64,000 bases of DNA from an uncultured virus (IMG/VR IMGVR_UViG_3300037400_001705) (IMGVR_UViG_3300037400_001705), one strand, 5' to 3'; positions 8,141 through 61,358 are shown, numbered from the stretch's first letter. The notes: a model not told the origin generated them from the sequence alone. A program made the numbers and translations.

Positions 8141-8407
8141 TCATAACCCTTCCTCTTCCACCGCCTCTGCATCCTCTGGCTCCTGTTGTTTCAACTCCGC
8201 TATCTCCTGCTCGATGGCATTGATGCGGTCACGCCACTGCTGCCGCTGCTGGTGTAGCGAGCTGGCATCGTATGGCAGTCCATCGCCAGCGGCCTGCGCC
8301 TCGGCACACTTGATGATTTTGTAGTCACCACCGGCAAGTCGGGCTTCCAGATTCATCTTCTCGGTGTAGAGCAGATTCATCTTCTCATTAATTTCTGAAT
8401 TTGTCAT
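8141..8407 (-). CDS. small tail-fibre-associated hypothetical protein
   Basis: DYKIIKCAEAQ..LPYD..LHQQRQQWRDRIN. Confidence 0.7.
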   Translation of the reverse strand: MTNSEINEKMNLLYTEKMNLEARLAGGDYKIIKCAEAQAAGDGLPYDASSLHQQRQQWRDRINAIEQEIAELKQQEPEDAEAVEEEGL

Positions 8408-9614
8408 TTGTTTTAATTTTTAAGTTATACTTATGGTTCATTCTTGATTTCCAGTTATATTGGGGCTTGCATACGACACACTGACTCTGCTCATCCCATT
8501 CCATGTAGCGTCCCCATTCGGTCATTATTATTTCTCGTAGCAGACAGAGCCGCTTATGGCTTGTGCGGCCTTTCAGCAGTCCCGTGTAGCTGTTTACCGG
8601 CGATAGCAGGCGGTCAAGCCACCGTTCTTTGTCGGACATTCTATTTAATTCCTCTATCCGTCCAATGGCGCGGCGCCACGTCTTGTCGTTCAGGATAATA
8701 CGGAATGGGTGGATATGGCTTCCCAGGAACTCTACGCCGTGCCCGTATGGCTGGTCGTAGAATTTCTTTTCGTTGAGCTTTACGCCTTTTGTGGCAAACC
8801 GCTGCCGAAGTGTCGGAATCAGTGATAGTGCATATTGGTGAAGCCGTTCGGGTACTATCATAACGATGTCATCCACAAAACATACCACATGCAGACCGCA
8901 TTCTTCCGTTAGCCAGCGTATGTCATCGTTGATGTACAACCCCATTGCTGTTTGCCATATCAGCCTACCGATAGCCGCGCCCACTCCTTCGGGCTTGCGG
9001 AGTATCGACTTTTCAGGGTCTATGTGTTCTTTCCAGAAGTAGGCAGGCGTGCGCTTCTCGCAGTGGGCTGCAGGATTGCAGTGTATGGCTACCATTGTGA
9101 GCCACTTTAGGTACGCCTTGCGCTCCTCGTCGACATCCATCGCGTCTATCACGCTGTCTACACATTGTTCGGCGTGATTCCATAGAGCATTAGGAAAGTA
9201 GCCCTTCAGGTCTATCTTGATGATACGGCATGGTTGGGTATAGCCCTGCGACACCTCGTGGATATGTTCTATCAGTTGGTTGATGGCCGACTGTGATCCG
9301 TACCCTACGCGGTTGTTATAGGTATAGGGTGACAGCACCTTGTCGGCCAATGGTATCACCTCTTCGCAAATCTCGTGGTCTATGATACGTCCGCGTAGTT
9401 CGGTGGCCATAATCTCCCGCCACCTTGGGATAGAAGTAAGGAAGGTGTAGTTGTGGTGGATTCGCAGCGTGCGCTCCTCGCGTTCGCGGTGGTCGCGGAC
9501 AAGGTTCGACACCCACGACATTTCATACGTCATGGCATCGCGTCCGTAACGCTTATTCCTTCGGGTGTCAAAGTAGACATCGACAAGGTGCGCAAATCGC
9601 TGTTTCTCCTTCAT
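8388..9614 (-). CDS. DGR reverse transcriptase
   Basis: RIIDH, IKIDLKGYF, FVDD catalytic motif, GVEFLG; start set at MKEKQRF because the longer ORF begins inside TR. Confidence 0.93.
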   Translation of the reverse strand: MKEKQRFAHLVDVYFDTRRNKRYGRDAMTYEMSWVSNLVRDHREREERTLRIHHNYTFLTSIPRWREIMATELRGRIIDHEICEEVIPLADKVLSPYTYNNRVGYGSQSAINQLIEHIHEVSQGYTQPCRIIKIDLKGYFPNALWNHAEQCVDSVIDAMDVDEERKAYLKWLTMVAIHCNPAAHCEKRTPAYFWKEHIDPEKSILRKPEGVGAAIGRLIWQTAMGLYINDDIRWLTEECGLHVVCFVDDIVMIVPERLHQYALSLIPTLRQRFATKGVKLNEKKFYDQPYGHGVEFLGSHIHPFRIILNDKTWRRAIGRIEELNRMSDKERWLDRLLSPVNSYTGLLKGRTSHKRLCLLREIIMTEWGRYMEWDEQSQCVVCKPQYNWKSRMNHKYNLKIKTNDKFRN

Positions 9615-47288: not shown

Positions 47289-47296
47289 TACCTTTG
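47289..47296 (+). promoter_or_regulatory. -7 promoter box of the rightward accessory operon
   Basis: TACCTTTG, about 80 bp before ATG 47380. Confidence 0.65.
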
Positions 47297-47379
47297 CAGT
47301 ACATAAGAGATATAGTATTAACCAAAGGAGCGCAGCGTCTGGGCTCGCCTGCAATCAGGAACAAGGGACGCACGAAGTT

Positions 47380-48000
47380 ATGGCAAAGTTTACAGACAAT
47401 CAGAGAGAGAGCGCGAAGGTAGCAGCTATGACAGCTTACCAGAACACACTGATTGAATCCTACCTTTTCGGCGCAACCGACGAGGAGCGCGAGAACATGA
47501 AGAAGGCCTTCAACGATGACACGAAGGCGGGTGCGTTCCTGCTTATTCGTGGAACTGACTCAAAGGTCAACGAGAACGGAGAGCTGACAACCACCGACAA
47601 AGATGGTAACGTTGAAGTGTGGAAAGGTGCGTATGTGTTCACGTCTCTAACTTGGAAAGTAGACAAAGAGACTGGAAAGGTGACGGAAACGCGGAACTAC
47701 TTCCGTGCTCCTATTGAAGTTAATACGTGGGTACGTTGCGAGCGTGTCGTTAACTCGTGGATTGACTATGCCGAGCGCAAGTATCAAGACGTTTTGGACA
47801 CCATTACAAAACGTCGCGAGAAGGTTGAGAAGGATTGCAAAACGTTGATGGCCGCAGCCGTTGCCCTTCTTGAGTTTACCGACACTATTCCCGAGAAGTT
47901 CGTTGAGAAGTATCGCGAGACATACCGTGAAGGCGTCCGCTACGGTTACGCATTCGACGATGAGATTGTTTCCGCCTTCACGGAAAGCGACGGCAAGTAA
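47380..48000 (+). CDS. hypothetical protein, first gene of the accessory operon
   Basis: ORF of 206 aa. Confidence 0.85.
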   Translation: MAKFTDNQRESAKVAAMTAYQNTLIESYLFGATDEERENMKKAFNDDTKAGAFLLIRGTDSKVNENGELTTTDKDGNVEVWKGAYVFTSLTWKVDKETGKVTETRNYFRAPIEVNTWVRCERVVNSWIDYAERKYQDVLDTITKRREKVEKDCKTLMAAAVALLEFTDTIPEKFVEKYRETYREGVRYGYAFDDEIVSAFTESDGK

Positions 48001-48025
48001 TCGACACCGCACAACCAAACAAGAC

Positions 48026-48058
48026 GGGACGGGGAGAAATCCCCGCCCTATCTTTTTT
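48026..48058 (+). terminator. intrinsic terminator
   Basis: GGGACGGGGA-GAAA-TCCCCGCCC-TATCTTTTTT. Confidence 0.7.
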
Positions 48059-48065
48059 GATACCA

Positions 48066-48131
48066 TTTCAAAAATCCCCTGACGAGTCTTTGAGAATTAA
48101 GACGAAACACCTGGCGTGTCGGGATCTGAAA
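48066..48131 (+). ncRNA. hammerhead ribozyme (type I)
   Basis: Stem I ATCCC/GGGAT, core CTGACGA, stem II GTCTT/AAGAC, GAA, stem III ACAC/GTGT, GUC cleavage triplet ending at 48120. Confidence 0.9.
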
Positions 48132-48193
48132 AATCTCCAGTGTATTGTCCGACTGAACGAACGGACTGAACGAATAAAACGAACGAACGATTT

Positions 48194-48583
48194 ATGAGAA
48201 CGAACGAACAACTGGCCCGAACGAACGAGCCGAACAACCGAACGACTAACGATGCTGCCAGACAGCTTCGCAGACGTCAGGCAAAGAGAAATGAGAATGT
48301 ACGGAGAGCGATTTTAGACGCTATCGAGAGTACGATTCCGTATGCTCCGCGCCTGATTGAGTTCCCGAACGAGATTGTAGTACGAACGAAGTACGAGAAC
48401 CACGCTATTTTCCGCGCCAAGTATCTGCGAACGAGTACGCATTTCCCCGGCATTGTTCCAGAGCTGGTGAACGATAGCGGTGGCTACATGCTGATAACGT
48501 GGTTGACGTTTGGCTCTCTGCTGAGATTGCTCAAGGAAGTACGACAGGGCAATGAGATTAAGAATTTCGATTTCTTCATGTAA
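48194..48583 (+). CDS. hypothetical protein between the two ribozymes
   Basis: ORF of 129 aa; N-terminus encoded by AACG repeats. Confidence 0.65.
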   Translation: MRTNEQLARTNEPNNRTTNDAARQLRRRQAKRNENVRRAILDAIESTIPYAPRLIEFPNEIVVRTKYENHAIFRAKYLRTSTHFPGIVPELVNDSGGYMLITWLTFGSLLRLLKEVRQGNEIKNFDFFM

Positions 48584-48594
48584 ACGATACGATT

Positions 48595-48726
48595 ATGAAG
48601 TACGTACAGAAATTCAGGGTTGCCTATTGGTACATTGTATTGGACGGCAAAGAGATTAGGTCAAACAAGTACGAAGGGACAGGTTATCGCCCAAAGATTG
48701 AAAGCGACCTGATTAGAATAGATTAA
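48595..48726 (+). CDS. 43-aa hypothetical peptide
   Basis: MKYVQKFRVAYWYIVLDGKEIRSNKYEGTGYRPKIESDLIRID; stop abuts the twister. Confidence 0.45.
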   Translation: MKYVQKFRVAYWYIVLDGKEIRSNKYEGTGYRPKIESDLIRID

Positions 48727-48798
48727 CACAGAGCGACGGCAGTACGATTGTGCTGCCGGTAATGTGGCCATCCTTCGGGATGCTGGTTGCAAGCCCAG
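48727..48798 (+). ncRNA. twister ribozyme (P5-type permutation)
   Basis: CACA-GA-GCGA-[P1 hairpin]-G-T^AA-TGTG-GC-[P3 CATCC TTCG GGATG]-CTGG-TTGC-AA-GC-CCAG. Confidence 0.88.
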
Positions 48799-48799
48799 A

Positions 48800-49450
48800 C
48801 GAACAACATTCAAGCGGTTAGAGCGTATGCGGAGCCTGCGAAGTACGCAAGTACGATGAACAGAGAGAGCTGCAGCCGTTACGTAGACGAAACCGAGGTG
48901 AACGAGTTTCACGTAGGGGAGTAGTTGAGCCGACCTGGAAAGATGGTGCAAGGGCTACGTTTTAGGACGTCCCCAAGATGGCTTTGAACAATTTATATTA
49001 CATGATTGATTCTCGCAGTTGATTGCGAGTACGATATAGAGTTGGCTACCTATCTCGAGTACGACTGTAGAAATGCAGTACGATTTATCAGAGGATAATT
49101 CGTGGTGGTTCCCGTCGAAAGGTACGATAACACATTTAATCACTTTAGGATGAATCGGGCCGTGTACTTGTGGAGTACGATGACCCCACCGCTACAGACG
49201 AATTAGATGTTTGTCTGGACGGATGGTGGAATCTTGCGCCAAAGTACGATGAACGGCTGCAATGAAAGATATTACGAGGTGCGAGACCTCAGCATAAAGA
49301 ACGGCCTGACAGATGACCAAATCTGTCACATTCCCTCGGTTGGGGCAACGACGGCCTACATTGTTAGGAAAGTCCCAGGTGAACGAAAGACGATAAAGAA
49401 CGAAGAGGGAGAGACTACGGGAGAGAGTGGAATTACATCTACTCTCTCTT
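48800..49450 (+). ncRNA. candidate large structured ncRNA 1
   Basis: No convincing ORF; many hairpins and long-range complementarities. Confidence 0.6.
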
Positions 49451-49475
49451 ACTATTAACCAAATATTGTACGATT

Positions 49476-49706
49476 ATGAAAAGAAAGCATTTCAGAATGA
49501 TTGCAGGCATCATCCTGCATCCCGTGAGAATCCTCGTTGCACATTATTACCGCAACACGTATCAGAACGTCATCCGTCGCAACATTGCCGAACGTTGGCA
49601 TTGGAAGAACTACGACAGGATGCACCACATGAGCGAGGTTACAGGTACGGCCTACACGAAGAGCGACCTTTACGGCAAGCTCATGGAAGAAACCTGCATC
49701 TATTAG
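49476..49706 (+). CDS. hypothetical protein
   Basis: ORF bounded by repeat elements. Confidence 0.75.
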   Translation: MKRKHFRMIAGIILHPVRILVAHYYRNTYQNVIRRNIAERWHWKNYDRMHHMSEVTGTAYTKSDLYGKLMEETCIY

Positions 49707-49756
49707 CCTCTCGCAGCCTTGAACGGCTGCACCACTAACCGAAAAAAGCAACAATT

Positions 49757-49954
49757 ATGAAGAAATTCCTACAAATCTCAAAGAATGTTTTGAGTATGAG
49801 TGTTATTGTACTCATCAGTTTGGCAATCTGCTCCATTGTGGCATTGGCCATCCTCTACGTGTTCGGTATCAATAATACGACGCTTCGGGCTGGTGCCTGC
49901 ATCGTATTCTTTGGCACTATCATCGTGGCCCTTATGTTGGGCGCGTTCGATTAA
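49757..49954 (+). CDS. small two-TM membrane protein
   Basis: Two hydrophobic helices. Confidence 0.7.
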   Translation: MKKFLQISKNVLSMSVIVLISLAICSIVALAILYVFGINNTTLRAGACIVFFGTIIVALMLGAFD

Positions 49955-50024
49955 CGGTCTTACGGATTTTTGTGGCGAAAATGCTGCAAAAATCGCTCAT
50001 GTTTCACCAAATAGAATGAACGAT

Positions 50025-50303
50025 ATGGATAAGTTAAAGAAATTGCAGATGTTAGCCCGTGTTCTCAGAGAGCACCGCGGCTACAAAGGTAACAAAGAGT
50101 CAGACCATTCCAACAGGTTTGACTTCAAGTTTGACAAGAAGGGCGACATTTGTGGGCCGTACATAGACATCTATAATGCCGAGAAGGGTGCAAATCTCTT
50201 CCTGTGGCCTGATTTTATCGAGCTGTGTCACGGCTTGGGTCTGTCTCATTACATTACCTATGACCAATTTGACCTCAAAGAGGTGGTGCTACACATCTAC
50301 TAA
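50025..50303 (+). CDS. hypothetical protein
   Basis: MDKLKKLQML...; bounded by elements. Confidence 0.7.
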   Translation: MDKLKKLQMLARVLREHRGYKGNKESDHSNRFDFKFDKKGDICGPYIDIYNAEKGANLFLWPDFIELCHGLGLSHYITYDQFDLKEVVLHIY

Positions 50304-50358
50304 GTCTCTCGGCTCCTGATGGAGCCACATATTTTTCACCAATTTAAAAAACGAACGT

Positions 50359-50613
50359 ATGAAGAACAAAGTTTTAAGAACAACGGCAATTTTCCGTTGC
50401 ATCGTGACGCTCAAGAACGGAGCGCATCGCATTGTAAGGACAACGATTGACAATGTAGCCAAGTTGAATGCTGCACTTTTGCAGTACCGCGACTTTGGTC
50501 TGCTTAACAATCGCTATTCAGATTTCATGAAAGAGCTGGGCCTGGCTGCCTACGATGTTCTGTCCTGCAAGGTCATCAACGAACGGACAGGACAAGAATT
50601 GATGACGATTTAG
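50359..50613 (+). CDS. hypothetical protein
   Basis: ORF bounded by elements. Confidence 0.75.
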   Translation: MKNKVLRTTAIFRCIVTLKNGAHRIVRTTIDNVAKLNAALLQYRDFGLLNNRYSDFMKELGLAAYDVLSCKVINERTGQELMTI

Positions 50614-50670
50614 CCTTTATAGGGTGGGGACGTTTTGCCGCCATCCTACCACAAACCAATAACTTTCACG

Positions 50671-50838
50671 ATGGTAATAAATAAAGTAATCCGCGATAAG
50701 AGCGGTTTTTGGTATGTTGGCAGACTTTTGACCGCAGATCCAGACGGCGTGCCCGTCTTTCAGCGCCTGTCAGAACTCTATTGCCACAAGGGATGGGCAT
50801 TGAATTTCGCCCGTCGTATGTGTATCAAGCTATCGTAG
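50671..50838 (+). CDS. hypothetical protein
   Basis: MVINKVIRDKSGFWYV... Confidence 0.65.
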   Translation: MVINKVIRDKSGFWYVGRLLTADPDGVPVFQRLSELYCHKGWALNFARRMCIKLS

Positions 50839-50911
50839 CCTTTTCGGCATGGGTGGGTTTTATTTCGTTCGTTCGCCTGCCTGTGCTGCTATTAACCAAA
50901 TCTTTATTGTT

Positions 50912-51337
50912 ATGTTAAAATCAGAATTTTATGACAGAACGCACGTATCTCTCTCGGATGAAGAGTATGGTGCAGTAGAGAACATCTACAATCGTGTCCA
51001 GATGGACAAAGACGAGTTTTGCAGACTGTGGCTTGACAATCGCGACAACAAAATCATCAACGAGCTTGTGTCGTATGCCATGGGTGTCGAGAAAGCGAAT
51101 GCCGCATTAGACAAAGTAAGCAAAGAGCTGGAAGAGAAGTTGGCTGGAGAGTTAGCAGAGAGACAGAAGCACCTGCTGGACTTTGGCCGCAAGGTTGTTT
51201 CCTATCTTGACGACGAATCACGGCTCTACGACTTTTGTGTAGAAGAGTTCGGTCAGAACTTTGTCATCAAGGTCAAGCTGGAGTGTAACATCGACCTTGA
51301 CACCAACGAACGCGAGTATCTTGCAAAGATGCTGTAG
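50912..51337 (+). CDS. hypothetical protein
   Basis: MLKSEFYDRT...MDKDEFC. Confidence 0.8.
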   Translation: MLKSEFYDRTHVSLSDEEYGAVENIYNRVQMDKDEFCRLWLDNRDNKIINELVSYAMGVEKANAALDKVSKELEEKLAGELAERQKHLLDFGRKVVSYLDDESRLYDFCVEEFGQNFVIKVKLECNIDLDTNEREYLAKML

Positions 51338-51393
51338 TCTATTGAACTGGTAACAATTTGTCACCAGTTCACTATTCACCAACAATTTACAAT

Positions 51394-51609
51394 ATGAACA
51401 AAAAGAATTTATTCAAAAAACAGGCTAATGTTGCTGAATGTACCATCGTTTGGAAAGACTCTGGCGAGAAAGAAAATGTAATCATCAGCCTTGACGGCAG
51501 CGACAACGACGGCATTTTCTTTGTCTGCAATTCAGAGGAAGAGTTTGCTCAACTGACAGAAGATTCCAGCGGCGAAGATTTTGACATTGTTACATTCAAG
51601 ATTTTGTAA
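51394..51609 (+). CDS. hypothetical protein
   Basis: MNKKNLF...DDGIFF-like acidic domain. Confidence 0.7.
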   Translation: MNKKNLFKKQANVAECTIVWKDSGEKENVIISLDGSDNDGIFFVCNSEEEFAQLTEDSSGEDFDIVTFKIL

Positions 51610-51671
51610 GTCTCTCTATCATTTTCGTGACCTCACGAAAATGGTACATTATTCACCAAATATTATTACTT

Positions 51672-52046
51672 ATGAAGATTTTGATTGAGACACGCTCTCC
51701 AGAGAACAACAACCTCCTGCATCCTGTATATAAGCAGGTGATAGGAGAGAGAGAAATTCCGTGTGCTGACGTAAAGAAGATTGGCAACTGTTGGTATGCT
51801 ATCAATTATGGTGGCCACATCGTTACAGGCGTGGAACCTGAGCGTATCAAGGAAGTACGCACGAATAGCGGTCTACTTTTCAATGTACATTTCGACCACA
51901 CGGGTTATCTCCAAGGAAAGAAATTCTGTTGTGAGGCGTACAGAAATCCGAACAACGGCTACGGATCGTGTTATTGCACCCTTGACGGTATCATGGACTA
52001 CATTCACCAAGAGGAACGATTTGAAGCACGTCTCTCGCAGTCTTAG
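51672..52046 (+). CDS. hypothetical protein
   Basis: MKILIETR...; stop lies inside the hairpin of an element. Confidence 0.75.
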   Translation: MKILIETRSPENNNLLHPVYKQVIGEREIPCADVKKIGNCWYAINYGGHIVTGVEPERIKEVRTNSGLLFNVHFDHTGYLQGKKFCCEAYRNPNNGYGSCYCTLDGIMDYIHQEERFEARLSQS

Positions 52047-52076
52047 GACTGCACTATTCACCAAACATCAAAGAAT

Positions 52077-52313
52077 ATGGAGAAACTTTTGAGAAAACAG
52101 CTCCATCTTGTCGGCTCAGCTGGCACGTTGGAAAACCTTTGTGAGTACGCTAAGAAAAGACTTTACTGGTCGCAGTTCGAAACCTCTGAGAGTACACGCT
52201 ACGAATCCCGTATTGGTAAGGTGTACGATGTGAGTAGTTCTAACGGCCTTGTTTCTGATATGGTCATCATTCAGGGTAAAGTACGTTGTTCACTCTTTCG
52301 GATAGAGAAGTAA
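52077..52313 (+). CDS. hypothetical protein
   Basis: ORF. Confidence 0.7.
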   Translation: MEKLLRKQLHLVGSAGTLENLCEYAKKRLYWSQFETSESTRYESRIGKVYDVSSSNGLVSDMVIIQGKVRCSLFRIEK

Positions 52314-52316
52314 GCT

Positions 52317-52553
52317 ATGATGACGGCTTTCAGAAGCTCTCTTATATGGAGAGATACCGTTTCCTATGCGGTTAGCATCTTCTCTTTCATTATCCGTGGA
52401 GAGGGAGAAATGAGCGGACGAAAGTTTGCTGAACATATCCGTAATTATTGCGGATGCTCTGACGAAAAACAAAAGGTCATTCTTTCCGAGATTGAAAAGC
52501 ACATCGTGAGGATTGAGGCCACCTACAGAGGAACAAAGTATTACTGCGTATGA
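52317..52553 (+). CDS. hypothetical protein
   Basis: ORF. Confidence 0.6.
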   Translation: MMTAFRSSLIWRDTVSYAVSIFSFIIRGEGEMSGRKFAEHIRNYCGCSDEKQKVILSEIEKHIVRIEATYRGTKYYCV

Positions 52554-52708
52554 ATAACGGTAAAGTCAAGTGGCTCACGTTCACGGACAATCCCCAATGG
52601 GGTCGTTACTTCATTGGCGAGAGTGATTCTAAGGCAGAAGCCCACACCAAAGGAAAGGCGGCAAACAAAGGCCGCTACGTTGTTGAACGAAGAGTAAAGT
52701 TCAAGTAG
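52550..52708 (+). CDS. 52-aa hypothetical protein
   Basis: MNNGKVKWLTFTDNPQWGRYF...; ATGA coupling; stop is the TAG of an element. Confidence 0.6.
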   Translation: MNNGKVKWLTFTDNPQWGRYFIGESDSKAEAHTKGKAANKGRYVVERRVKFK

Positions 52709-52762
52709 TCTTTTGCGGCTCTTGCATGAGCCGCACAAACAACCCTTTAAAACTGAAAGAAT

Positions 52763-53650
52763 ATGGAAAGAAGAGAAAAAGTAAATGCAATCAGAAGTCT
52801 GGCTGTAAGTAGCGGACGGATGATTAGTATGGACCCCGAAAGCTGGGGCGAGCATCGCCTGAACGCTTTGGAATCTGAGCTGCAGGAGTTTCTTGCAAAA
52901 ATTCCCGAAGAGGTACGTGACGAGTACGAAGATAAGTACATCGGCAAATACAAAGAATGGCTCTATGCTATGAGCCGTTGTGTCTCTCAGATGGTGACGG
53001 GTGCAGGCGGTTGGACGTCTTCCATGCTTCGACGCAAGCAGAAGAACGACCAGTACGAGCGTAATGCCCGTGAACGTCTTGATAAGTGGGCCGAAAAGGT
53101 CATCAAGCGCTGCAATCGTCAAGAACGTCTGACCGGCTGGGCTGAGGTTGAACGCTTGCAGGAAAAACTCGACAGCCTTAAAGAATCCCAGGAGATGATG
53201 AAGGCTGCAAACAAGATTATCCGCAACAATAATCTTGCAGAGGTTGAAAAGGTTGACGAGTTGGTTTCCCTTGGCTTTAACGAACAAACTGCATTGAAGC
53301 TCATGGAGCCAGATTTCTGCGGACGAATCGGCTTTGCCTCTTACGCTTTGAGCAACAACCTTGCCACCATCAAGGACACGGAAGCCAAAATCAAGCGTCA
53401 TGCTGCAATGGCAGAGCGTGCGAGAGGTGGTGACGAGGTTCACGATTACCCTTGGGGAAAGCTGGTTGTTGCTTTCGGCGACGAACGCTACCGCTTCATC
53501 TTCGACGGAAAGCCAGCCCCGAACGTCATCAGCCTCATGAAGTCGAACGCTTTCAAGTGGAGCCCTTCAAACTCAGCGTGGCAGCGTCAGATTACCGCCA
53601 ACGCAAAGTATGCCGTGAAGCGTATGATTGAAGAGCTCAACAACATGTAG
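52763..53650 (+). CDS. DUF3560-like / polyvalent-protein-associated domain protein
   Basis: GFASYALSNN.ATIK; RFIFDGKP...LMKSNAFKWSPSNSAWQRQIT.NA. Confidence 0.7.
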   Translation: MERREKVNAIRSLAVSSGRMISMDPESWGEHRLNALESELQEFLAKIPEEVRDEYEDKYIGKYKEWLYAMSRCVSQMVTGAGGWTSSMLRRKQKNDQYERNARERLDKWAEKVIKRCNRQERLTGWAEVERLQEKLDSLKESQEMMKAANKIIRNNNLAEVEKVDELVSLGFNEQTALKLMEPDFCGRIGFASYALSNNLATIKDTEAKIKRHAAMAERARGGDEVHDYPWGKLVVAFGDERYRFIFDGKPAPNVISLMKSNAFKWSPSNSAWQRQITANAKYAVKRMIEELNNM

Positions 53651-53702
53651 CCTTTAGCCCGCCTTGCATGGTGGGTACCACAAACCAACAAATATTTGAA
53701 TT

Positions 53703-54017
53703 ATGAGAGTAACATTAGCACGGAATTGTGGCAACAATATTGTTGAACACATTATCTTTGACGACCCTTACAGGGCACAAAATTTCTACGGGACATATTG
53801 CGGCAAGGTAGCTGGCGTCGTGAAGTGCGAAAGCATCTACACTATCGGTGCAGGCGAACACAAAGAAGAAAACTGCTTCAACTGCCCGCTGCATCACTGC
53901 TGCCTATGCGAGAACCGCAAGTTCACAGACGAGAACGGCACGAAGTTCTACGTATCTGTGTGGGACACCACAAAGAAAAGCAACGAACAGAATGCTATCA
54001 AGAAACTCGAATTTTAA
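53703..54017 (+). CDS. Cys-rich hypothetical protein
   Basis: ORF. Confidence 0.7.
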   Translation: MRVTLARNCGNNIVEHIIFDDPYRAQNFYGTYCGKVAGVVKCESIYTIGAGEHKEENCFNCPLHHCCLCENRKFTDENGTKFYVSVWDTTKKSNEQNAIKKLEF

Positions 54018-54085
54018 GAGTAGTCTTTCACTATTTCGTTGACTCCGACGAAATAGTACTATTAACCAATAAAGCAAAAAAAACT

Positions 54086-54259
54086 ATGGAAGAAAAGACA
54101 ATTAAAGTAGAGGGCGAAATAACCCTCAACCTGCACGGAGGAAGCCTATGCACGGCCCTGCTGCGCATCAATGGCGAACAAAAGTATTTTACCTCCCAGC
54201 TGGGTAGCTCTGATCTCATGCAGAAAATCGGTAAACATATCCAAACTCATAGCGTATGA
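54086..54259 (+). CDS. hypothetical protein
   Basis: MEEKTIKVEGE... Confidence 0.6.
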   Translation: MEEKTIKVEGEITLNLHGGSLCTALLRINGEQKYFTSQLGSSDLMQKIGKHIQTHSV

Positions 54260-54543
54260 AGATTGAATTATTTACAGGAGCGAAGACAATCCAAGTAGAT
54301 TGTTTTGCCTGCGAAGAAAAGACGAGGTATCGCATTGCGGCTTATTATGGTGGTGTGTATATCAAAACGCTCTACACCTGCAACAGTGAGATAGAACGTC
54401 ACGAAATGATTTGCAACTACATGAGCCAAACGCACAATGCAGGATGCAAAAACTCTTCTCTTTACGTACGTATTGGCAGTGGCCTTTGCTTCTTCTATTG
54501 CGATGGCCTGATGATTATGGAAGAAGAAATCTATGACGTCTAA
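54256..54543 (+). CDS. hypothetical protein
   Basis: ATGA coupling. Confidence 0.65.
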   Translation: MKIELFTGAKTIQVDCFACEEKTRYRIAAYYGGVYIKTLYTCNSEIERHEMICNYMSQTHNAGCKNSSLYVRIGSGLCFFYCDGLMIMEEEIYDV

Positions 54544-54554
54544 AACATGCTGAT

Positions 54555-54884
54555 ATGAATATAAGTTATTATCTCTATCTCTCAACGGCAAACTGTCAGG
54601 AATCTCACTCTCTTAGAATCTGCTCGGATGCAAATTTGACAGTCATTCGTGATGCCATTTCAAACATTATACGTGCCATGTTTGAAAGACGGCCGCATTG
54701 GTATTCCGAGGAATACGTCAACTGTCAAGCTGACGAAATGACCATGCTGTTTGCTGACCTTCTGAAAGATGGCTCGCCCATCACTAAACGCAAATATCCA
54801 TTCTATCATCTTGGCTTTATCATCACAAATTATCCAATGTGGCCAGACAACAACGGTGGGTATCTGAGCGACTTTCATGTATAA
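54555..54884 (+). CDS. hypothetical protein
   Basis: ORF. Confidence 0.7.
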   Translation: MNISYYLYLSTANCQESHSLRICSDANLTVIRDAISNIIRAMFERRPHWYSEEYVNCQADEMTMLFADLLKDGSPITKRKYPFYHLGFIITNYPMWPDNNGGYLSDFHV

Positions 54885-54946
54885 GTCTCACACCATTTCG
54901 CTGACACCAACGAAATGGTACACTTTAACCCTAAAAACAAAAGAGT

Positions 54947-55129
54947 ATGACAAAAACAATCTTTATGAAAGTCCGCGTCGATTACGATGATGACGGACGT
55001 TACGGCTCATACGAGGCCGACAGCATGGTTGCCGACATGGTTGTAGAGCGTGCGCAGGCACACAACCACACCGTAGAGAACGGCATACGCATTGAGAAAA
55101 TCACTAATCATGGGATAGATAGTTATTAA
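54947..55129 (+). CDS. hypothetical protein
   Basis: ORF. Confidence 0.65.
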   Translation: MTKTIFMKVRVDYDDDGRYGSYEADSMVADMVVERAQAHNHTVENGIRIEKITNHGIDSY

Positions 55130-55148
55130 CCCTTAAACTTATGGGAAT

Positions 55149-55484
55149 ATGGAAAACAATGCAGTAAACAAGGACGCTCAGCGCATCCATGAAATTACGG
55201 GCCGACCAATGGCCGAGTGTGAAGAGCAGGCAAAGCAGATTGCCGAGTGTGTACGTGAAATGTGTGACCGTGTGGTGGAGTTCTACTATCTTAAGAAAGA
55301 CGGCACTACACGGCAGGCTTTCGGTACGCTTCAGCAGGAAGTTGTGATTGCTCATGTGACAGCTGACTCCATGAGAGAGCCAAAGCCTGACCTCGTAACG
55401 TATTTCGATACTGAGGCGCAGGCATGGCGTTCTTTCAAGAAAGTCAACTTCAAGAACTACGTTAAGCAGGAGCCACAAGCATGA
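55149..55484 (+). CDS. WYL-like SH3 beta-barrel protein (DUF2693-like)
   Basis: VEFYYLKKDGTTRQAFGTL...TYFDTEAQAWRSFK. Confidence 0.8.
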   Translation: MENNAVNKDAQRIHEITGRPMAECEEQAKQIAECVREMCDRVVEFYYLKKDGTTRQAFGTLQQEVVIAHVTADSMREPKPDLVTYFDTEAQAWRSFKKVNFKNYVKQEPQA

Positions 55485-55618
55485 CGGATTTAGCCAAAAT
55501 CCTGTGGTGGATTTTTATCGCTTCTCTCACGCTTGGCGTCTGGACACTACCAATCGTAGTGGTTCTCGTCATCATCCAAATGTATCTCAAAAAGAAGCAC
55601 CCGAATTGGTGCAAGTAA
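55481..55618 (+). CDS. small membrane peptide
   Basis: MTDLAKILWWIFIASLTLGVWTLPIVVVLVIIQMYLKKKHPNWCK. Confidence 0.6.
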   Translation: MTDLAKILWWIFIASLTLGVWTLPIVVVLVIIQMYLKKKHPNWCK

Positions 55619-55681
55619 AGTCTTAAGCCGTGCAAAGGACACGGCACTATTTATTGTCTAACCGTTTAAATAGTAAGAATT

Positions 55682-56590
55682 ATGAAGAAAGAAAAGAATG
55701 CCTACACCGTAGAGAATGCGAAAGTTCCAGTAGTACGCTACGACTATTACAAGCGTGAAACAAAAGGCTATCTGCATATCGACGGCGGGCTGGTCTACGT
55801 CACCGTCACGGCTATCTGCATCAACTTCAAGAAGCAGCAGATCACGACGGTTCTCACGGACAAGAACGGCAAGGAGTACAAGCAGGAGGGCACATACAAC
55901 CTCTATGATTCTCCTTCGAAGTTCGAGAATAACAGCCCCATGGAGCCGACAAAGAACTTCACGTACAATCTCATTAAGAACGCTGACTGGGGCAGGCTTG
56001 CCGAGTGTGCAGTATCCAACATCGACGAAGAGGATGGCAAGAAATCTTGCTACATCAACGTCTGGACGTTCGAGAACGGAGCAGCCCAACAGGTTCCAGC
56101 CGTCATCAACGAAATTTCCTGCGACGCTTACGAGAAGTGGCACCTAACGGATGGCTCGCTGCCCGCCAAGTTTTGGGAGAGCCGAGAAGATGCCTTTGCC
56201 TGCAACGAGTACCAGGTTACCGACAGCGACGGCGAGGTGTTTGTGGAGCAGGGCTACCAGATGCGCCTTCTCCCAACTCCTGCCCAGTGGGTCATCATCA
56301 AGCAGATGAGAGCACTCTTCGAGAAAGCCAAGGAAGCAGGACTTTACTTCGTTTGGGACAGAGCGTATTGCGGCAATCTCAAGGCTGTAAACTATCAGAA
56401 CGTCTACACCTTCGATTACGACGCTGAGAATTTCGAGGGTGGAGACCTCATCCCTGTCAATAAGGCTGCGCTTGCTGACACTGGCATCGACTTCTATGAC
56501 TATTGTGGCGACGAGAGTGACAGGTATGCGTTTGCCCTCAATCCCATGGCACGTCAGAAAAAGGAATGGCTTAAGAACCATGCCAAGTAA
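55682..56590 (+). CDS. hypothetical protein
   Basis: ORF of 302 aa. Confidence 0.85.
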   Translation: MKKEKNAYTVENAKVPVVRYDYYKRETKGYLHIDGGLVYVTVTAICINFKKQQITTVLTDKNGKEYKQEGTYNLYDSPSKFENNSPMEPTKNFTYNLIKNADWGRLAECAVSNIDEEDGKKSCYINVWTFENGAAQQVPAVINEISCDAYEKWHLTDGSLPAKFWESREDAFACNEYQVTDSDGEVFVEQGYQMRLLPTPAQWVIIKQMRALFEKAKEAGLYFVWDRAYCGNLKAVNYQNVYTFDYDAENFEGGDLIPVNKAALADTGIDFYDYCGDESDRYAFALNPMARQKKEWLKNHAK

Positions 56591-56647
56591 GTCTCTAAGG
56601 TGGCCTTGCATGGCCACCACAATTATTAACCAATAAATTGTAAGAGT

Positions 56648-57061
56648 ATGAATATTTCAATTAAACCAAATGATTACGTTCGGCCAACGGAGGTGCGTGA
56701 CGAAGTTGTGAAAAAAGTCTGCAATCATATTGTTTCGTATTTAGACAGACTTGAAGTTGACATGGAGATTAGTTTGCAAGGTGCGCATCCTGCTTTATTC
56801 TTTGGAGAAAAGGATGAGGACATGACACACTACAAGAATATGGCAAAAACTGTGCTCTCCACAGAAGAAAATTATATGAACGTGTACTATTACACACGGG
56901 TAAGAGGTTGCGAAATGCGCAAGGTTTTCAAACTGCTGCAAGAAGCTGGCTACTACATCTACTCTCTTAACGAAATGGGGTGGAGTTACGCTATTTCCAA
57001 GTACCCATACCGCAATATGTACAAAGCTGAGCGTGTAGAGTTTAAGTCATTTATTGATTAG
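56648..57061 (+). CDS. hypothetical protein
   Basis: ORF of 137 aa. Confidence 0.8.
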   Translation: MNISIKPNDYVRPTEVRDEVVKKVCNHIVSYLDRLEVDMEISLQGAHPALFFGEKDEDMTHYKNMAKTVLSTEENYMNVYYYTRVRGCEMRKVFKLLQEAGYYIYSLNEMGWSYAISKYPYRNMYKAERVEFKSFID

Positions 57062-57099
57062 TCTTTCTCCCTGCTTGCAAGCAGGGAACAACAAACCAA

Positions 57100-57580
57100 G
57101 TTTTGTTCGCTACGAGCAATCTCACGGCTCGCAGTTGCCATCAGTGAGTGACAGATGGAAAGACCTCCGTCCAGCTCTCCACTATCCGCCGGACGTAAAA
57201 TAAAGGTAGTGCGGTTCTGTGACACAACAAAGTACACGATGTGCGGCAGACGGCTCAGGAAAAGAGGCATAAAACCCGTCGAAACCACTTAGGGACGTAA
57301 AGGCAGTGGGGGTATGCAACCACCAAGAGAGTAACATCGGCTGACGAAGGAAAAGCAGGGTGCTCCTGAGACCATAGAGATGGATAGCGTTAGACCACAA
57401 CTGCGCGAACAACAACTAAAGGCTACCGACGCAGGTATAGTCGTAAAAGAATCCCGCAACCACCGAGCGTAAAAGGCCGACAGACCATAACTGCGGAAAT
57501 CAAAGGCTACCGTTGGACGATAACGCAAAGCGTAAGCCATGGAAAAACTCTTCACGAAATTTCGTGTTGGAATTGGCAAA
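57100..57580 (+). ncRNA. candidate large structured ncRNA 2
   Basis: No plus-strand ORF; hairpins, long-range pairings and internal repeats; bounded by two elements. Confidence 0.55.
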
Positions 57581-57636
57581 AGTCTCATGGGGAATGTGGA
57601 CGCACATTCCCTACTACTAACCAACTACACAAGATT

Positions 57637-58155
57637 ATGGCAAAGCTAAATGTCTACTCATTTGCCGACTATAACGCTGTCCGCTATCTTGCCCATCAAG
57701 TGAAGGATGGAAACGACAGCAGTATCAGTCGCGCAGCTCGTTACATGGCGCATCTTGTGTCGTGTATCGCTGACGAGCGGTGCGTTATCGTTCCTGTGCC
57801 TGGTCGTATAGGTGTCGCTCTCTACACAAAGGTTCTTGCCGAACGTATCTCTGAGCTGACGGGTGTGCGTGTCATGGACTGCTTAAAATGCAAGCCACAC
57901 ATGACGCAGTATCTCCGCAAGTACCGCTATGGTCTTGACAGCATGCGACCGATGGACTTTTCAGTTACCGAAAATGTTCCCTCAAACGTTATCCCCATTC
58001 TCATTGATAACGTCCTCGACACGGGAACAACCGTCATGTCCGCTATGCAGGCTCTTGACCGCTCTCTCTACGCTGTTGTGCTGGGCAACACACACAACTT
58101 CCTGCATTTCAATTATCCTATCAACCTCTACGAACAATCTCTCACATGGCAATGA
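57637..58155 (+). CDS. ComF-like phosphoribosyltransferase-fold protein
   Basis: VIVPVP; ILIDNVLDTGTT PRPP-binding loop. Confidence 0.8.
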   Translation: MAKLNVYSFADYNAVRYLAHQVKDGNDSSISRAARYMAHLVSCIADERCVIVPVPGRIGVALYTKVLAERISELTGVRVMDCLKCKPHMTQYLRKYRYGLDSMRPMDFSVTENVPSNVIPILIDNVLDTGTTVMSAMQALDRSLYAVVLGNTHNFLHFNYPINLYEQSLTWQ

Positions 58156-58364
58156 GCGTCAAGTACGAAGCCGTCTGCGAATCGGGCAATACGGATGCTG
58201 ACACCATCCGAACGTTCCCTGACCGCGAATGCGCTGACCTCTTTTGTCAGATTTGGCGTGCCTCGCATCCTGGCACCCATGCTTGGGTACGAGAGACACA
58301 ACACCGCCACATGGAACACAAAACTCTTGGCAGTTCCGTAATGACGGTCGAACTCTACGATTAG
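58146..58364 (+). CDS. hypothetical protein
   Basis: ORF. Confidence 0.65.
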   Translation: MAMSVKYEAVCESGNTDADTIRTFPDRECADLFCQIWRASHPGTHAWVRETQHRHMEHKTLGSSVMTVELYD

Positions 58365-58424
58365 CCTCAGTGTGCAGCGTGATTTTGTCACGCTGTTCCC
58401 AATAACCCCTAAATATATCAGAAT

Positions 58425-58745
58425 ATGACAAAAGCAGACAAATTGTACTTGGAATTGAAGCAGGGACACCCTAACCACCTGATTCTTATCAGACGTAATG
58501 ACTTCTATGAATGCAGGGAAGATGATGCAAAGATTGTGTCAAATGTTCTTGGTATCACATTGTCAAGACACACTACTGGGCTAAAGCATTTCTTCTGCTG
58601 TTTTCCGTTTCATGCGCTCGACACCTATCTGCCTAAGCTTGTCCGTGCAGGCTATAAGGTTGCCATCTGCGACCAGCTGGACGAACCAAAGAAACCCGTC
58701 AAGCGCGGTATTACAGAACTCGTCTCTTCAAACCCACTGAAATAG
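58425..58745 (+). CDS. stand-alone MutS domain I protein
   Basis: YLELKQ.HP..LILIR..DFYE...DA...LGITL; FP.HALDTYLPKLVRAGYKVAICDQ. Confidence 0.88.
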   Translation: MTKADKLYLELKQGHPNHLILIRRNDFYECREDDAKIVSNVLGITLSRHTTGLKHFFCCFPFHALDTYLPKLVRAGYKVAICDQLDEPKKPVKRGITELVSSNPLK

Positions 58746-58779
58746 GTGGGTTCACTATTAACCAAACAACATCATCATT

Positions 58780-59475
58780 ATGAAAAGAAAACTATCACTA
58801 CCCGTAAACTGTTGGGCAGCGGAAGATATTCCGTCCAACAAACTGATTGAAGCCAATTCCGACCATCTGAGTAATTCAGAATTACTCTCTATCATCATTG
58901 GTAATGGCTCCAACACAGAGAATAGTGTAGAACTGGCACGCCGCATCCTGTCAACGTGTGACAACAAACTGTCCAAACTGGCAAAGATGACGCCTAACGA
59001 CCTCTCTTGCTTTCATGGCGTCGGCAAACAGAAAGCGGCTAAGATTATGGCAGCTCTCGAACTCGGCCGTCGCCGTCAGGAAGAGCAGGCCATTGAAAAG
59101 CCAGACTTGGGTACGGCTGTACGCATCTATAACATGATGCACCCTATCATGGCAGACTTGGAGAAAGAAGAGTTTTGGGTGCTTCTCGCAAATCAGAACT
59201 TCAAACTGATAAAGAAATTCCGACTGTCGCAGGGTGGCATCTCTGAGGTGGCCGTGGATATTCGTATCGTCATAAAGGAAGCTGTTCTCAACAACGCTAC
59301 CATCTTGGTGGTCTGCCACAATCATCCGTCTGGTTCTCTACGCCCGAGCAAGTTTGACGACGACCTGACCTTTAGCTTACAGAAAGCCTGTCAACTCATG
59401 CGCATCAAGTTTATGGACCACGTTATCGTGACCGACGGAGCGTATTATTCCTATCACGAACAGGGCAAACTCTGA
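58780..59475 (+). CDS. radC: RadC/JAB-domain protein
   Basis: LSNSELLSIII, HhH GVG..KA, EEFWV, HNHPSG...PS..D, DHVIV. Confidence 0.92.
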   Translation: MKRKLSLPVNCWAAEDIPSNKLIEANSDHLSNSELLSIIIGNGSNTENSVELARRILSTCDNKLSKLAKMTPNDLSCFHGVGKQKAAKIMAALELGRRRQEEQAIEKPDLGTAVRIYNMMHPIMADLEKEEFWVLLANQNFKLIKKFRLSQGGISEVAVDIRIVIKEAVLNNATILVVCHNHPSGSLRPSKFDDDLTFSLQKACQLMRIKFMDHVIVTDGAYYSYHEQGKL

Positions 59476-59535
59476 TTTAGTCTCTCGTGCCCAATGGGTA
59501 ACCATTGGGTAGCCACTAACCAAACTTTTAAGAAT

Positions 59536-60864
59536 ATGGAAACAAAAGAATTATTAACTTACTGCTGGAAACACAAGCTTTTCGGCAAAGGTCTCAAGAC
59601 ATCAAACGGAAAGAATTTGCAGATTATTGATGTGGGATTGTTTGACCGACACCACGGCTCTCGTTTCTTCAACGCAAAACTTGGAATCGACAGCACGCTA
59701 TGGGTTGGCTACGTCTTAGTCTTTGAGAAGTCAAGCGATTTCTACCAGTCCGACATCAAGGATTCAAGCAATGTAATCCTTGTTGTGTGCAGCTCAGAGG
59801 ACCAACCTTGCTTTGCGGCTGACGGAACGGAGATACCGCGATTGGTTGTGAGTGTTCCCGACAGCGTTACCCGCAATTATGATGCTCTGATGGGTGCCGA
59901 TGGCGATACGCTTTGCCACCGCCACATCATGCAGTACACAACTCCGCTTTCGAGACACGCTTGGATTGCTGCCATGCAGACAGAGTTTCTTGAGAACGAA
60001 ACCGAGTATATCAGTAGGTTCTATAAAGAGAGTGGTGATTTGGAAAAGACTTTCTTCATAGCTCTGCTGAGGGCTTTCGGATTCGCCACAAACAAGACGA
60101 CAATGGATCTGCTGGCACGAAACATCTGCATGAACGCCTTGGAGAACTGCCGCGACAACCTCTTTCAGATTGAAGCCATTATTCTTGGTCAGGCTGGACT
60201 TCTCACCCTGGAGCCAGACGCTCAGAGAGCAATACCCGAAAAGTATCTCAAACACGCTCAAATGGAAGGCTATTTCGCAAAACTCAGAAACGAATGGCTC
60301 TATCTGAAAAACAAGTTCAACATGCCGTTGGAAATATCAAGGCTATGCTGGCAACCTTACGGCGGTGGCGGTCTGACTTATCCGAATGTCTATCTGTCAA
60401 TGCTGGCTAATTGGTGGTATTGTAGAAAAATGGATTCAAAGACGGCCTTAAACATCAAGACTGCGAAAGAGGCTATGAACCTCTTCAACACTCATTGCAC
60501 GCCTTATTGGGAAACTCACTACGTCTTTGGCTCCGAGACATCAAAGTGTATGAAATGTCTATCCAACGACAGAAAGGCTTGGCTTGTTGCGGCTTGTCTG
60601 ACCCCGTTCCTCTTCTTCTACGGTAGGCATACCAGCAACGAAGAACTTTGTGACCGCGCTTTCGAGATAATGGAACAGCTTGGCCACTTCTCTACGTCCG
60701 ATACAAACTATTTCAAGAAGTTCGGCTTTGAGCCGACGGACGCTGGAGAGGTTGTTGGAATGACCCACCTGAAAGCCAAGTACTGCAATCCGCAATGCAA
60801 GGCCGGCGCTCCACGCCTCTGTCTTCTCTGCCGTTTTGGACGCGAGTTCATCACAAAACATTAG
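59536..60864 (+). CDS. DUF2851-like protein
   Basis: ELLTYCWKHKLF, FFNAK, FGF..NK, EAIILGQAGLL, YWETHYVFG, C-terminal C..CRFG. Confidence 0.8.
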   Translation: METKELLTYCWKHKLFGKGLKTSNGKNLQIIDVGLFDRHHGSRFFNAKLGIDSTLWVGYVLVFEKSSDFYQSDIKDSSNVILVVCSSEDQPCFAADGTEIPRLVVSVPDSVTRNYDALMGADGDTLCHRHIMQYTTPLSRHAWIAAMQTEFLENETEYISRFYKESGDLEKTFFIALLRAFGFATNKTTMDLLARNICMNALENCRDNLFQIEAIILGQAGLLTLEPDAQRAIPEKYLKHAQMEGYFAKLRNEWLYLKNKFNMPLEISRLCWQPYGGGGLTYPNVYLSMLANWWYCRKMDSKTALNIKTAKEAMNLFNTHCTPYWETHYVFGSETSKCMKCLSNDRKAWLVAACLTPFLFFYGRHTSNEELCDRAFEIMEQLGHFSTSDTNYFKKFGFEPTDAGEVVGMTHLKAKYCNPQCKAGAPRLCLLCRFGREFITKH

Positions 60865-60942
60865 TCTCTTTGTTCTGCACGTTTTTTTCGTGCAGTTCAC
60901 CAATTATCAAAAACCATGTTATAAAATCAGAAAAATAGACCG

Positions 60943-61188
60943 CTGTGTGAATCACTGTGTGAGATTTACATAAAACTTACTGATTATCAGTGTGTTTGTT
61001 GTGTGAATTGCTGTGTGAGTTGGTAAGTATATTTTACAATACCGCCTAATTTACATCAAATTATTTCATAAAAAACCGCCCAAAATCGCGGGTTTTGCGG
61101 GTTTTTGAGGGGTCACACACCAACTCACACACTTAACGTATTGATAATCATTATATTATCTCAAAACCTCACACACCTTCTCACACAG
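60943..61188. repeat. two inverted clusters of TGTGTGA repeats
   Basis: TGTGTGA x4 (60944-61018) facing TCACACA x4 (61113-61187). Confidence 0.8.
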
Positions 61189-61358
61189 TCCCCTATTATA
61201 AATAAGGTACGCAGGCGCAGCCGCTCGCCCATGCGCGATTTTAATAGTTATATATATAATATATTAAAGAAAAATTTTAAAAAGAAAGAAACACGTCTCT
61301 GCTGTTAAAAATCCAAAAGACAGCCTAAATATAAACCGTAAATAATTATCTTTGCAAC

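Follow-up and report, generated by a model that had tools for sequence, protein, structure and literature searches.

Does a large structured RNA encoded by a phage carry, near its 3' end, a segment with which it could dock on the junctions between the genes of its own operon, and if so, is the match more than a coincidence? The question is raised by a 64,000-nucleotide (nt) stretch of DNA from an uncultured virus (IMG/VR record IMGVR_UViG_3300037400_001705; the whole stretch is called "the window" below and its positions are counted from its first letter), in which a non-coding RNA (ncRNA), ncRNA 1, stands at the head of an array of repeated units that lie between cistrons and consist of a 5' box, a hairpin and a 3' box. 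The first-pass annotation of the window had claimed that the 3' end of ncRNA 1 is complementary to both boxes and that the RNA may be a guide or catalyst that docks on each junction. We find that the core of the proposed complement of the 5' box is an unpaired linker that is invariant in all relatives of the RNA, and that the array as a whole is complementary to ncRNA 1 beyond chance; the proposed complement of the 3' box is not conserved, and no match to a catalytic RNA was found apart from the twister ribozyme at the 5' end. That the linker is a base-pairing seed which would dock ncRNA 1 on the junction boxes is the reading that we tentatively favor, at somewhat less than an even chance.

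The ncRNA 1 gene lies in a 749-nt gene-free gap (48727-49475), and the features on which the argument turns are the following:

48727..48798, + strand: type-P5 twister ribozyme (RF02684), 46.1 bits against a gathering score of 37.6
48761..49450, + strand: ncRNA 1, a structured RNA of ~690 nt whose 5' end the twister is predicted to set
49332..49337, + strand: 5' strand of helix X, UCCCUC, which pairs with 49405-49410
49341-49346 with 49372-49377, + strand: helix Y of the consensus fold
49378..49383, + strand: GGTGAA, the proposed second anti-box, directly after helix Y
49405..49410, + strand: 3' strand of helix X, GAGGGA, which includes the first two bases of GAGAGACTA
49411..49418, + strand: the 8-nt linker GAGACUAC, the conserved anti-box, complementary to UAGUCUC and unpaired between helix X and the terminal hairpin
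49419..49450, + strand: terminal hairpin of ncRNA 1, with a stem of 13 base pairs (bp) in the window and compensatory changes in 5 of 9 consensus pairs
49451..49460, + strand: 3' box of the first unit, ACTATTAACC, which follows the terminal hairpin

Relatives for comparison were obtained without using the anti-box, through a primase-like protein, through a 19-/20-mer from the middle of the RNA (49134-49152) that was searched in viral, metagenome and genome collections, and through the unit pattern. About 20 loci homologous to ncRNA 1 were found (individual loci are given L numbers below). A scan of IMG/VR with the unit pattern gave 38 hits, 2 of which are real arrays, both with ncRNA 1, and every array-bearing contig found has ncRNA 1 at the head of its array; all are from one phage lineage. 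The 129-amino-acid and 206-amino-acid flanking proteins, used as probes, returned no loci.

The nine-base sequence GAGAGACTA at 49409-49417 is indeed the exact reverse complement of the 5' box consensus TAGTCTCTC, as had been claimed, and it is the only one in the 64-kilobase (kb) window. Its first two bases, G49409 and A49410, belong to helix X, where they covary and read CG or CU in relatives, so the conserved anti-box is the linker at 49411-49418. The sequence GAGACTACG is kept in 21 of 21 related sequences (20 of 20 distinct aligned sequences plus L075), and the linker is unpaired in the consensus structure of 17 sequences; the minimum-energy fold of the window's own RNA leaves only ACUAC unpaired. 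The linker thus has the property expected of a seed-type RNA, that of a conserved, unpaired seed. Its placement had also been read correctly: the first hairpin and 3' box (49419-49460) form a unit that carries the anti-box in the position of its own 5' box, and the anti-box heads the array in every relative that has an array.

The structure around the linker is well defined by comparison. The consensus fold of the 3' domain, built on 17 distinct sequences, has 26 pairs, with 96.6% of the alignment cells paired and compensatory changes in 14 pairs; none of 500 shuffles was as good, and controls in which the pairing was slid gave ~50-60% pairing. All 6 pairs of helix X have compensatory changes, and one of them is AU in 8 sequences, UA in 4, CG in 3 and GC in 2. 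The window's own minimum-energy fold agrees with the consensus helices, including the terminal hairpin. Elsewhere ncRNA 1 has many other invariant unpaired blocks that are rich in A. An open reading frame (ORF) at 49207-49458 was rejected as coding: ORFs across the region are not kept in the relatives and the insertions and deletions are not multiples of three. The frame of this ORF continues through the 3' box in L001, and an ORF of L005 stops before the linker. In L007 (6755 and downstream, on the minus strand of the locus) an insertion of >100 nt with a small ORF lies in the loop of the terminal hairpin, and both arms are kept. The heptamer GUACGAU occurs 8 times on the + strand at 48742-49474, with 7 copies in the body of ncRNA 1 and the eighth at 49468 before the next ATG; the whole window has 16 copies of GTACGAT against 5.4 expected. 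The copies are mostly just 3' of small hairpins. The one that immediately precedes the ATG of the next gene downstream of the RNA (GTACGATTATG) is kept in most relatives, and ACGAU(U) is also present ahead of the starts of both upstream genes.

The presumed targets are the intercistronic units, which with the other places where their parts occur are:

47289..47296, + strand: host-type promoter motif TACCTTTG (TAnnTTTG), the most downstream of those clustered ahead of the operon
47314..47323, + strand: earliest 3'-box-like leader (AGTATTAACC), which has neither hairpin nor 5' box and stands ~57 nt ahead of the first gene
49704..60895, + strand: the array, 16 detected units (17 boxes with the one at 50836), from script search and direct reading
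57088..57587, + strand: ncRNA 2, a second conserved gene-free stretch, flanked on both sides by complete units

A unit begins with the stop-codon box (U/A)AGUCU(C/U), continues 7-9 nt later with a hairpin and ends with (C)ACUAUU(A/C)ACCAA; this leader (ACUAUUAACCAA) precedes the next start, and the ATG is mostly 13-18 nt after its CC. Of the script's hits in the window, 16 are credible units, which lie between 49.7 and 60.9 kb and are all on the + strand; the others (2 elsewhere on the + strand and 6 on the - strand) are short, G.U-rich chance stems. Over nine loci there are 87 distinct units. The search demanded AG[TC]CT near a hairpin and then a box of the type A[ACT]CC, so these positions are invariant by construction. 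Around them, the base preceding the AG of the box is T in 62 units and A in 20, the base following AGYCT is C in 48 and T in 33, and the spacing between box and hairpin is 7-9 nt in 75 of the 87. The box supplies the stop codon through its TAG in 62 of the 87 units, and 11 others have a TAA or TGA that overlaps the box. Among the 3' boxes, TTCACC is found in 29 units, TTAACC in 21 and ATAACC in 11, with other forms in the rest, and AA follows the box.

These units act on the RNA level, to judge by their hairpins. When the stems were re-derived with Watson-Crick pairs only and any mismatch allowed, the internal mismatches were G.U in 21 cases and A.C in 3 (binomial, 2.8e-4), which argues that the hairpins are selected in the sense RNA. 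No U run follows them, and it is the flanks that are conserved, not the hairpin. Parts of the unit also occur separately. A 3'-box copy stands after the operon promoter without hairpin or 5' box (it is kept in L001, L002 and L007 and absent from L005), a 3' box heads ncRNA 2 and a box plus hairpin end it, complete units stand on either side of it, and the distant relative L003 has only a 3'-box-like leader ahead of genes. With such modular parts the unit looks more like a boundary of transcript units, coding or not, than like a signal for translation alone. The window and its relatives differ in gene content, and the breakpoints are at the units.

Is the complementarity between the boxes and ncRNA 1 greater than an RNA of this size and composition would have by chance? 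In dinucleotide shuffles of the 660-nt RNA the 9-mer occurs in 0.9% and the 7-mer core in 8.8%. The array was also tested as a whole: the best duplex energy of each of the 17 window boxes (11 nt) with ncRNA 1 was calculated and averaged, and the mean of -11.94 kcal/mol (against -10.0 +/- 0.64 in shuffles) was reached by 0 of 300 shuffles. Ten of the 17 boxes have a duplex at -12 kcal/mol or lower; the shuffles have 2.4 such boxes on average and 1 of 300 reached ten. Ten sense-strand coding controls from the operon gave values of -9.3 to -10.8, compared with -12.2 for the boxes when both ncRNAs are taken together. For 9 of the 17 boxes the anti-box is the best site in the whole RNA (-10.3 to -14.9 kcal/mol). 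Complementarity to the targets beyond chance, the other property of a seed-type RNA, is therefore present as well.

How much of the box variation could such a duplex absorb? It had been proposed that much of the variation is C or T opposite G and so compatible with wobble pairing. This is correct for position 5 of the box, opposite G49411, with C in 48 and T in 33 of the 87 units; at position 2 the variant is a C opposite A49414, a mismatch, in 11 of the 87. The five window boxes that had been reported to read GCCT do so (at 49704, 50611, 50836, 53648 and 58362).

The second half of the claimed complementarity did not survive the comparison. GGTGAA is present at 49378-49383 as described, and across 20 relatives GGTGA is kept in 8, replaced by GGAGA in 11 and unalignable in 1; relatives with GGAGA still have AACC or CACC 3' boxes. 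GGTGAA or GGTTAA occurs in 36% of shuffles of the 660-nt RNA, and GGTGAA is in fact present twice. We therefore reject it as a second anti-box, as it is not conserved among relatives that retain the array (the outcome that the annotation itself had named as refuting its proposal), does not vary along with the 3' box and can be put down to chance.

If the linker is a seed, events might run as follows. The twister near the head of the operon would release a folded ncRNA 1 of ~690 nt that ends like a unit, in a hairpin and leader, and that presents, where the box of a unit would stand, the complement of that box, the linker GAGACUAC. The released RNA would dock by 7-9 bp where many cistrons end, on their UAGUCUY box. 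The duplex would then be placed between the unit hairpin, 0-2 nt away, and the 13-bp terminal hairpin of ncRNA 1, 1 nt away, and if the helices stack they would make a long composite double-stranded element. Such a composite helix could alter cutting, protection or termination at the junction, which would give the RNA a regulatory or guide role and not a catalytic one. A more far-reaching form, which we think rather unlikely, would have the linker dock on the box of every unit, with AAAGGCUAC of ncRNA 2 perhaps covering the C-variant boxes and the stacked duplex directing cutting or protection at every junction; this would be an RNA-guided punctuation of the messenger RNA with a logic like that of the trans-activating CRISPR RNA (tracrRNA).

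Several points weigh against docking, in addition to the loss of GGTGAA as a partner of the 3' box. The conserved complement is only 7-8 nt, and the longest perfect complement in the window is 9 nt. When the window's RNA is folded by itself, G49411 and G49413 lengthen helix X. An invariant hairpin has in its loop the sequence GUGGUU (49103-49108), for which GACUAC of the linker is a possible partner (6 bp, including 2 G.U) in 15 of 15 full-length relatives. Eight of the 17 window boxes match best elsewhere in the RNA, by weaker or unconserved matches, and among them are the five that carry a C opposite A49414, a central mismatch; the record of L007 has 3 C-type boxes. The box core and the anti-box are both invariant in all relatives, and there is therefore no covariation between them. 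Ribosomes that terminate at the stop codon would cover the box, which overlaps it. Finally, the hypothesis was framed only once the match had been seen.

Could ncRNA 2 serve the C-type boxes? AAAGGCUAC occurs in it at 57418 and 57502 and is the exact complement of the box variant GUAGCCUUU, and three such boxes map best there. This agrees, weakly, with a partner that would set a G against the variable position of the box. The array-wide complementarity of ncRNA 2 is not significant (reached by 46 of 300 shuffles). In loci with and without ncRNA 2, C-type boxes number 7 of 38 and 5 of 58 (Fisher 0.21, not significant) and CCUU-type boxes 4 of 38 and 1 of 58 (p = 0.078), in counts made by hand from clades that are not independent and with rows not matching AG[TC]CT dropped; no ncRNA 2 is detectable in the L007 record with its three C-type boxes. 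With neither significant complementarity nor a significant excess of C-type boxes, ncRNA 2 was rejected as a second guide. It is conserved only in the record of L001 and in L031, with insertions and deletions that exclude coding, and a search for further relatives returned only the contig of L001. It has long invariant blocks, a repeated CGUAAA(A)G, an internal duplication that is specific to the window, and a CUGAYGA...GAAA-like stretch that has no Rfam match.

The alternative that deserves most attention is that the match is coincidental, which we rate as a substantial possibility, though short of probable. The linker would then be invariant for the sake of ncRNA 1 itself, as a tertiary contact or protein site, and the units would be autonomous boundaries, each made of a 3' stabilizer or processing hairpin and a 5' leader or phage-specific promoter, comparable, in Bacteroidota, to the composite terminator/promoter cassettes of T4-like phages. 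The pairing of loop GUGGUU with GACUAC in all 15 relatives could supply such a contact, and this RNA has many other invariant, unpaired A-rich blocks; the 7-mer alone occurs somewhere in 8.8% of shuffles, and the modular occurrence of the unit's parts (including those around ncRNA 2 and the leader of L003) and the gene-content breakpoints speak for autonomous boundaries. Coincidence has more trouble with the array-wide complementarity that no shuffle in 300 attained, and with the fact that the complement falls exactly on the one unpaired invariant linker that occupies the unit's own box position; the loop-linker pairing, for its part, is weak, needs two G.U pairs and is also without covariation. 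An improbable alternative in which the anti-box has no part is antitermination of the nut type, where the hairpin and a boxA-like single strand would reload a processivity complex after each transcript cleavage. The order of hairpin and then conserved single strand is as in ribosomal RNA operons, a 3'-box copy stands just past the operon promoter, ribozymes would cut the transcript upstream, and the 3' box may resemble the enterobacterial boxA consensus. Yet the sequence that is probably the boxA of a Prevotella relative, found both in the ribosomal RNA (rRNA) leader and in the spacer, is AAAGUUCUUUGA, which is unlike the 3' box (the 3' box was for this reason rejected as the host's boxA), eighteen copies per operon would be unprecedented, and the 5' box and the linker would go unexplained.

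The remaining alternatives fare worse. A riboswitch-like alternative pairing, in which CUCUCUC, the 3' arm of the terminal hairpin, would be taken up either by GAGAGACUA or by the 5' arm GGGAGAGAG and the competition would control read-through into the array, draws on the resemblance of the two purine tracts (GGGAGAGAcUAc and GGGAGAGAgUgg) to a tandem duplicate, both of which can pair with CUCUCUC in the window. In L005, L021 and L027, however, the hairpin arms have changed together (for example GGGCGGGA with UCCCGUCU) and the linker is still GAGACUAC, so the alternative pairing is lost there; with no U run after the hairpin either, we regard it as very improbable. The same three loci led us to reject the anti-box as a mere duplicate of the 5' arm of the hairpin. 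About equally doubtful is a catalytic ncRNA 1, a group I-like RNA or a trans-acting nuclease or ligase for which the linker would be the internal guide in cutting or splicing the junctions. Its size, its many invariant unpaired blocks, the guide-like linker and the ribozyme-rich neighborhood would suit such an RNA, but an Rfam cmscan of 48000-50200 at expectation values (E) up to 10 matched ncRNA 1 to no family, catalytic or other, besides the twister at its 5' end, and to no group I intron. The likeness of GACUA/UAGUC to the P7 pairing of group I introns, to which the first-pass annotation had pointed, is only 5 nt long, and the 3' box has no conserved partner. Least probable of all is a role at the DNA level, in which box and anti-box would be copies, in opposite orientation, of a site for protein binding or recombination. 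In its favor are the two genes for tyrosine recombinases at 61.4-63.7 kb and the order of the copies, a single inverted one followed by an array of direct ones; against this, the hairpins tolerate G.U and not A.C, all units are on the transcribed strand, the common core is only 7 bp and the linker lies inside a covarying RNA structure.

Three other readings of the unit were tried and rejected. The 3' box was considered as an enhancer complementary to 16S rRNA. Only its CACC variant (CUAUUCACCA) is matched perfectly over 10 nt, at 16S 140-149 (L036 537-546), as in 1 of 200 shuffles; no such match exists for the AACC variant, for the 5' box or for GUACGAU and the linker. This is an observation of low weight given that eight motifs were tested and that the rRNA is from a relative of the Prevotella bin described below and maybe not the host's. 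Translational coupling by pairing of the 5' box with a purine-rich stretch before the next ATG was seen by eye in a few units (51335, 52706, 55617) and most units lack it. The external-guide logic of RNase P was dropped as there is no NCCA tail after the 7-bp duplex on either strand.

The ribozymes of the region were also compared among the relatives. The twister cut is predicted between U48760 and A48761 from the alignment to the family model and from a U-A cleavage step that we take to be the rule for type-P5 twisters. P1 of the twister covaries among relatives; a twister is at the head of the RNA in all relatives with sequence there, and scores above the gathering score in L002, L005, L007, L012 and L031. 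Upstream of it, in the gap between the two preceding genes, are further elements:

48025..48058, + strand: canonical terminator-like hairpin, then a T run, after the gene for the 206-amino-acid protein (sequence read directly)
48074..48125, + strand: hammerhead type I-like motif (RF00163), 21.6 bits, E 0.049, below the gathering score of 34
L001 4227-4290, L005 8027-8092, L007 8058-8121, L011 1719-1784 and L031 7831-7896: twister-P1-like motifs in the same gap of relatives

The hammerhead-like motif has CUGAnGA and GAAA cores and three stems that were recognized by eye, and its cut, on the cleavage rule that we assume, would be after C48120. L002 has its homologue in the gap. In the five other relatives listed above, the same gap has instead a twister-P1-like motif with 48.8-53.6 bits (E 1e-7 to 1e-9, below the gathering score of 67.2), and in L075 such a motif (53.8 bits) is directly ahead of the RNA. 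The ribozyme-like motif is preceded by a terminator-like hairpin with a T run in the window and in L001, L002, L005, L007, L011 and L031. The ribozyme class has thus been exchanged between relatives at one homologous intergenic gap. L003, which carries the primase-like gene and has neither the array nor ncRNA 1, has a match to the c4-2 antisense RNA at 3297-3374 (48.5 bits against a gathering score of 41).

The window is from a rumen phage, and its gene set is that of a tailed temperate phage, with terminase, portal, major head protein, a giant protein like a tape measure, reverse transcriptase, primases and two integrases. No close relative of it was found among GenBank phages by megablast and blastn; the ncRNA 1 relative L031 lies within a Prevotella genome bin. 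The operon block at ~47.3-60.9 kb has some 30 small genes, all on the + strand, and its long transcript likely starts at the promoter motif at 47289..47296. TAnnTTTG, which we take from the Bacteroides literature to be the host-type promoter, occurs on the + strand in 5 copies at 46.6-47.3 kb, in one gene at 53753 and once before an integrase gene at 61347; a motif scan of the + strand found it in none of the intergenic units, which might have a phage-specific promoter instead. Searches of the operon proteins against Pfam and PHROGs found no RNA-processing or RNA-binding protein except for a WYL_2 Sm-like domain (55149-55484). The last cassettes of the array (58425-60864) encode a MutS domain I protein, a RadC-like JAB protein and a DUF2851 protein, and translation of the last gene probably begins beyond the unit at 59478-59530 and not at the ATG within the hairpin of that unit. 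Past the last unit, a 494-nt gene-free stretch (60865-61358) has direct repeats of CTGTGTGA(R) and inverted copies (TCACACAC); it adjoins the genes for the two tyrosine recombinases and is a possible location of integrase arm sites or of an origin. Among the tail-region genes on the - strand, the reverse transcriptase gene at 8388-9614 (PHROG 1423) may be part of a diversity-generating retroelement.

What known systems does this arrangement resemble? The tracrRNA of type II CRISPR systems is likewise a separate RNA encoded next to an array, with an anti-repeat segment that complements a short element at each junction, and docking here would likewise mark the junctions. There the complement is ~25 nt and the repeats separate spacers, whereas here it is 7-9 nt, the repeats separate protein genes and the pairing is only proposed; no duplex of about two helical turns with each repeat was found for ncRNA 1, in which the longest complement is 9 nt (7-8 nt conserved), and no Cas genes were seen. 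Small RNAs (sRNAs) that pair with multiple targets are similar in that conservation is highest in a short single-stranded segment that closely precedes the terminal hairpin and complements many targets. They differ from ncRNA 1 in that the latter has ~690 nt, is released by a ribozyme and has its candidate targets in its own operon, at stop codons and not at ribosome-binding sites. No sRNA chaperone is known in this host group, in which the classical ones are reportedly lacking. Shine-Dalgarno pairing, too, is reportedly seldom used by this host group.

Composite intergenic cassettes are already known in T4-like phages, where the PeSL cassettes are described as terminator/promoter stem-loops between small variable early genes, with gene shuffling at the motifs (PMC4122927). 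Stem-loop motifs between small variable genes, with shuffling at the motif, are what the window has as well. Its units differ in that they have no host-type promoter motif, their hairpins have no U run and their flanks rather than the hairpin are conserved, and PeSLs are not known to have an associated RNA that bears a complementary segment. Self-cleaving ribozymes have been suggested to process polycistronic transcripts and to be linked to phages (PMC6765202), and the twister above its gathering score and the hammerhead-like motif between cistrons are in keeping with this; here a ribozyme in addition delimits a large conserved ncRNA, and its class is exchanged between relatives at one gap. 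A full-text literature search found no published description of this RNA or of the array. New here are a segment at the 3' end of a ribozyme-released RNA that complements the junction box and is both conserved and unpaired, and the RNA-level architecture of the units in a phage of Bacteroidota.

Even if the pairing is coincidental, the locus offers a clean natural case of ribozyme classes swapped at one intergenic site, and an example of RNA-level cassette boundaries in Bacteroidota phages. If docking does occur, this phage would organize the expression of a 14-kb operon by a guide RNA of its own, made by a ribozyme and acting on repeats at stop codons, and a concrete job would have been found both for a bacterial or phage twister ribozyme and for a large structured phage RNA, the functions of which are long-standing open questions.

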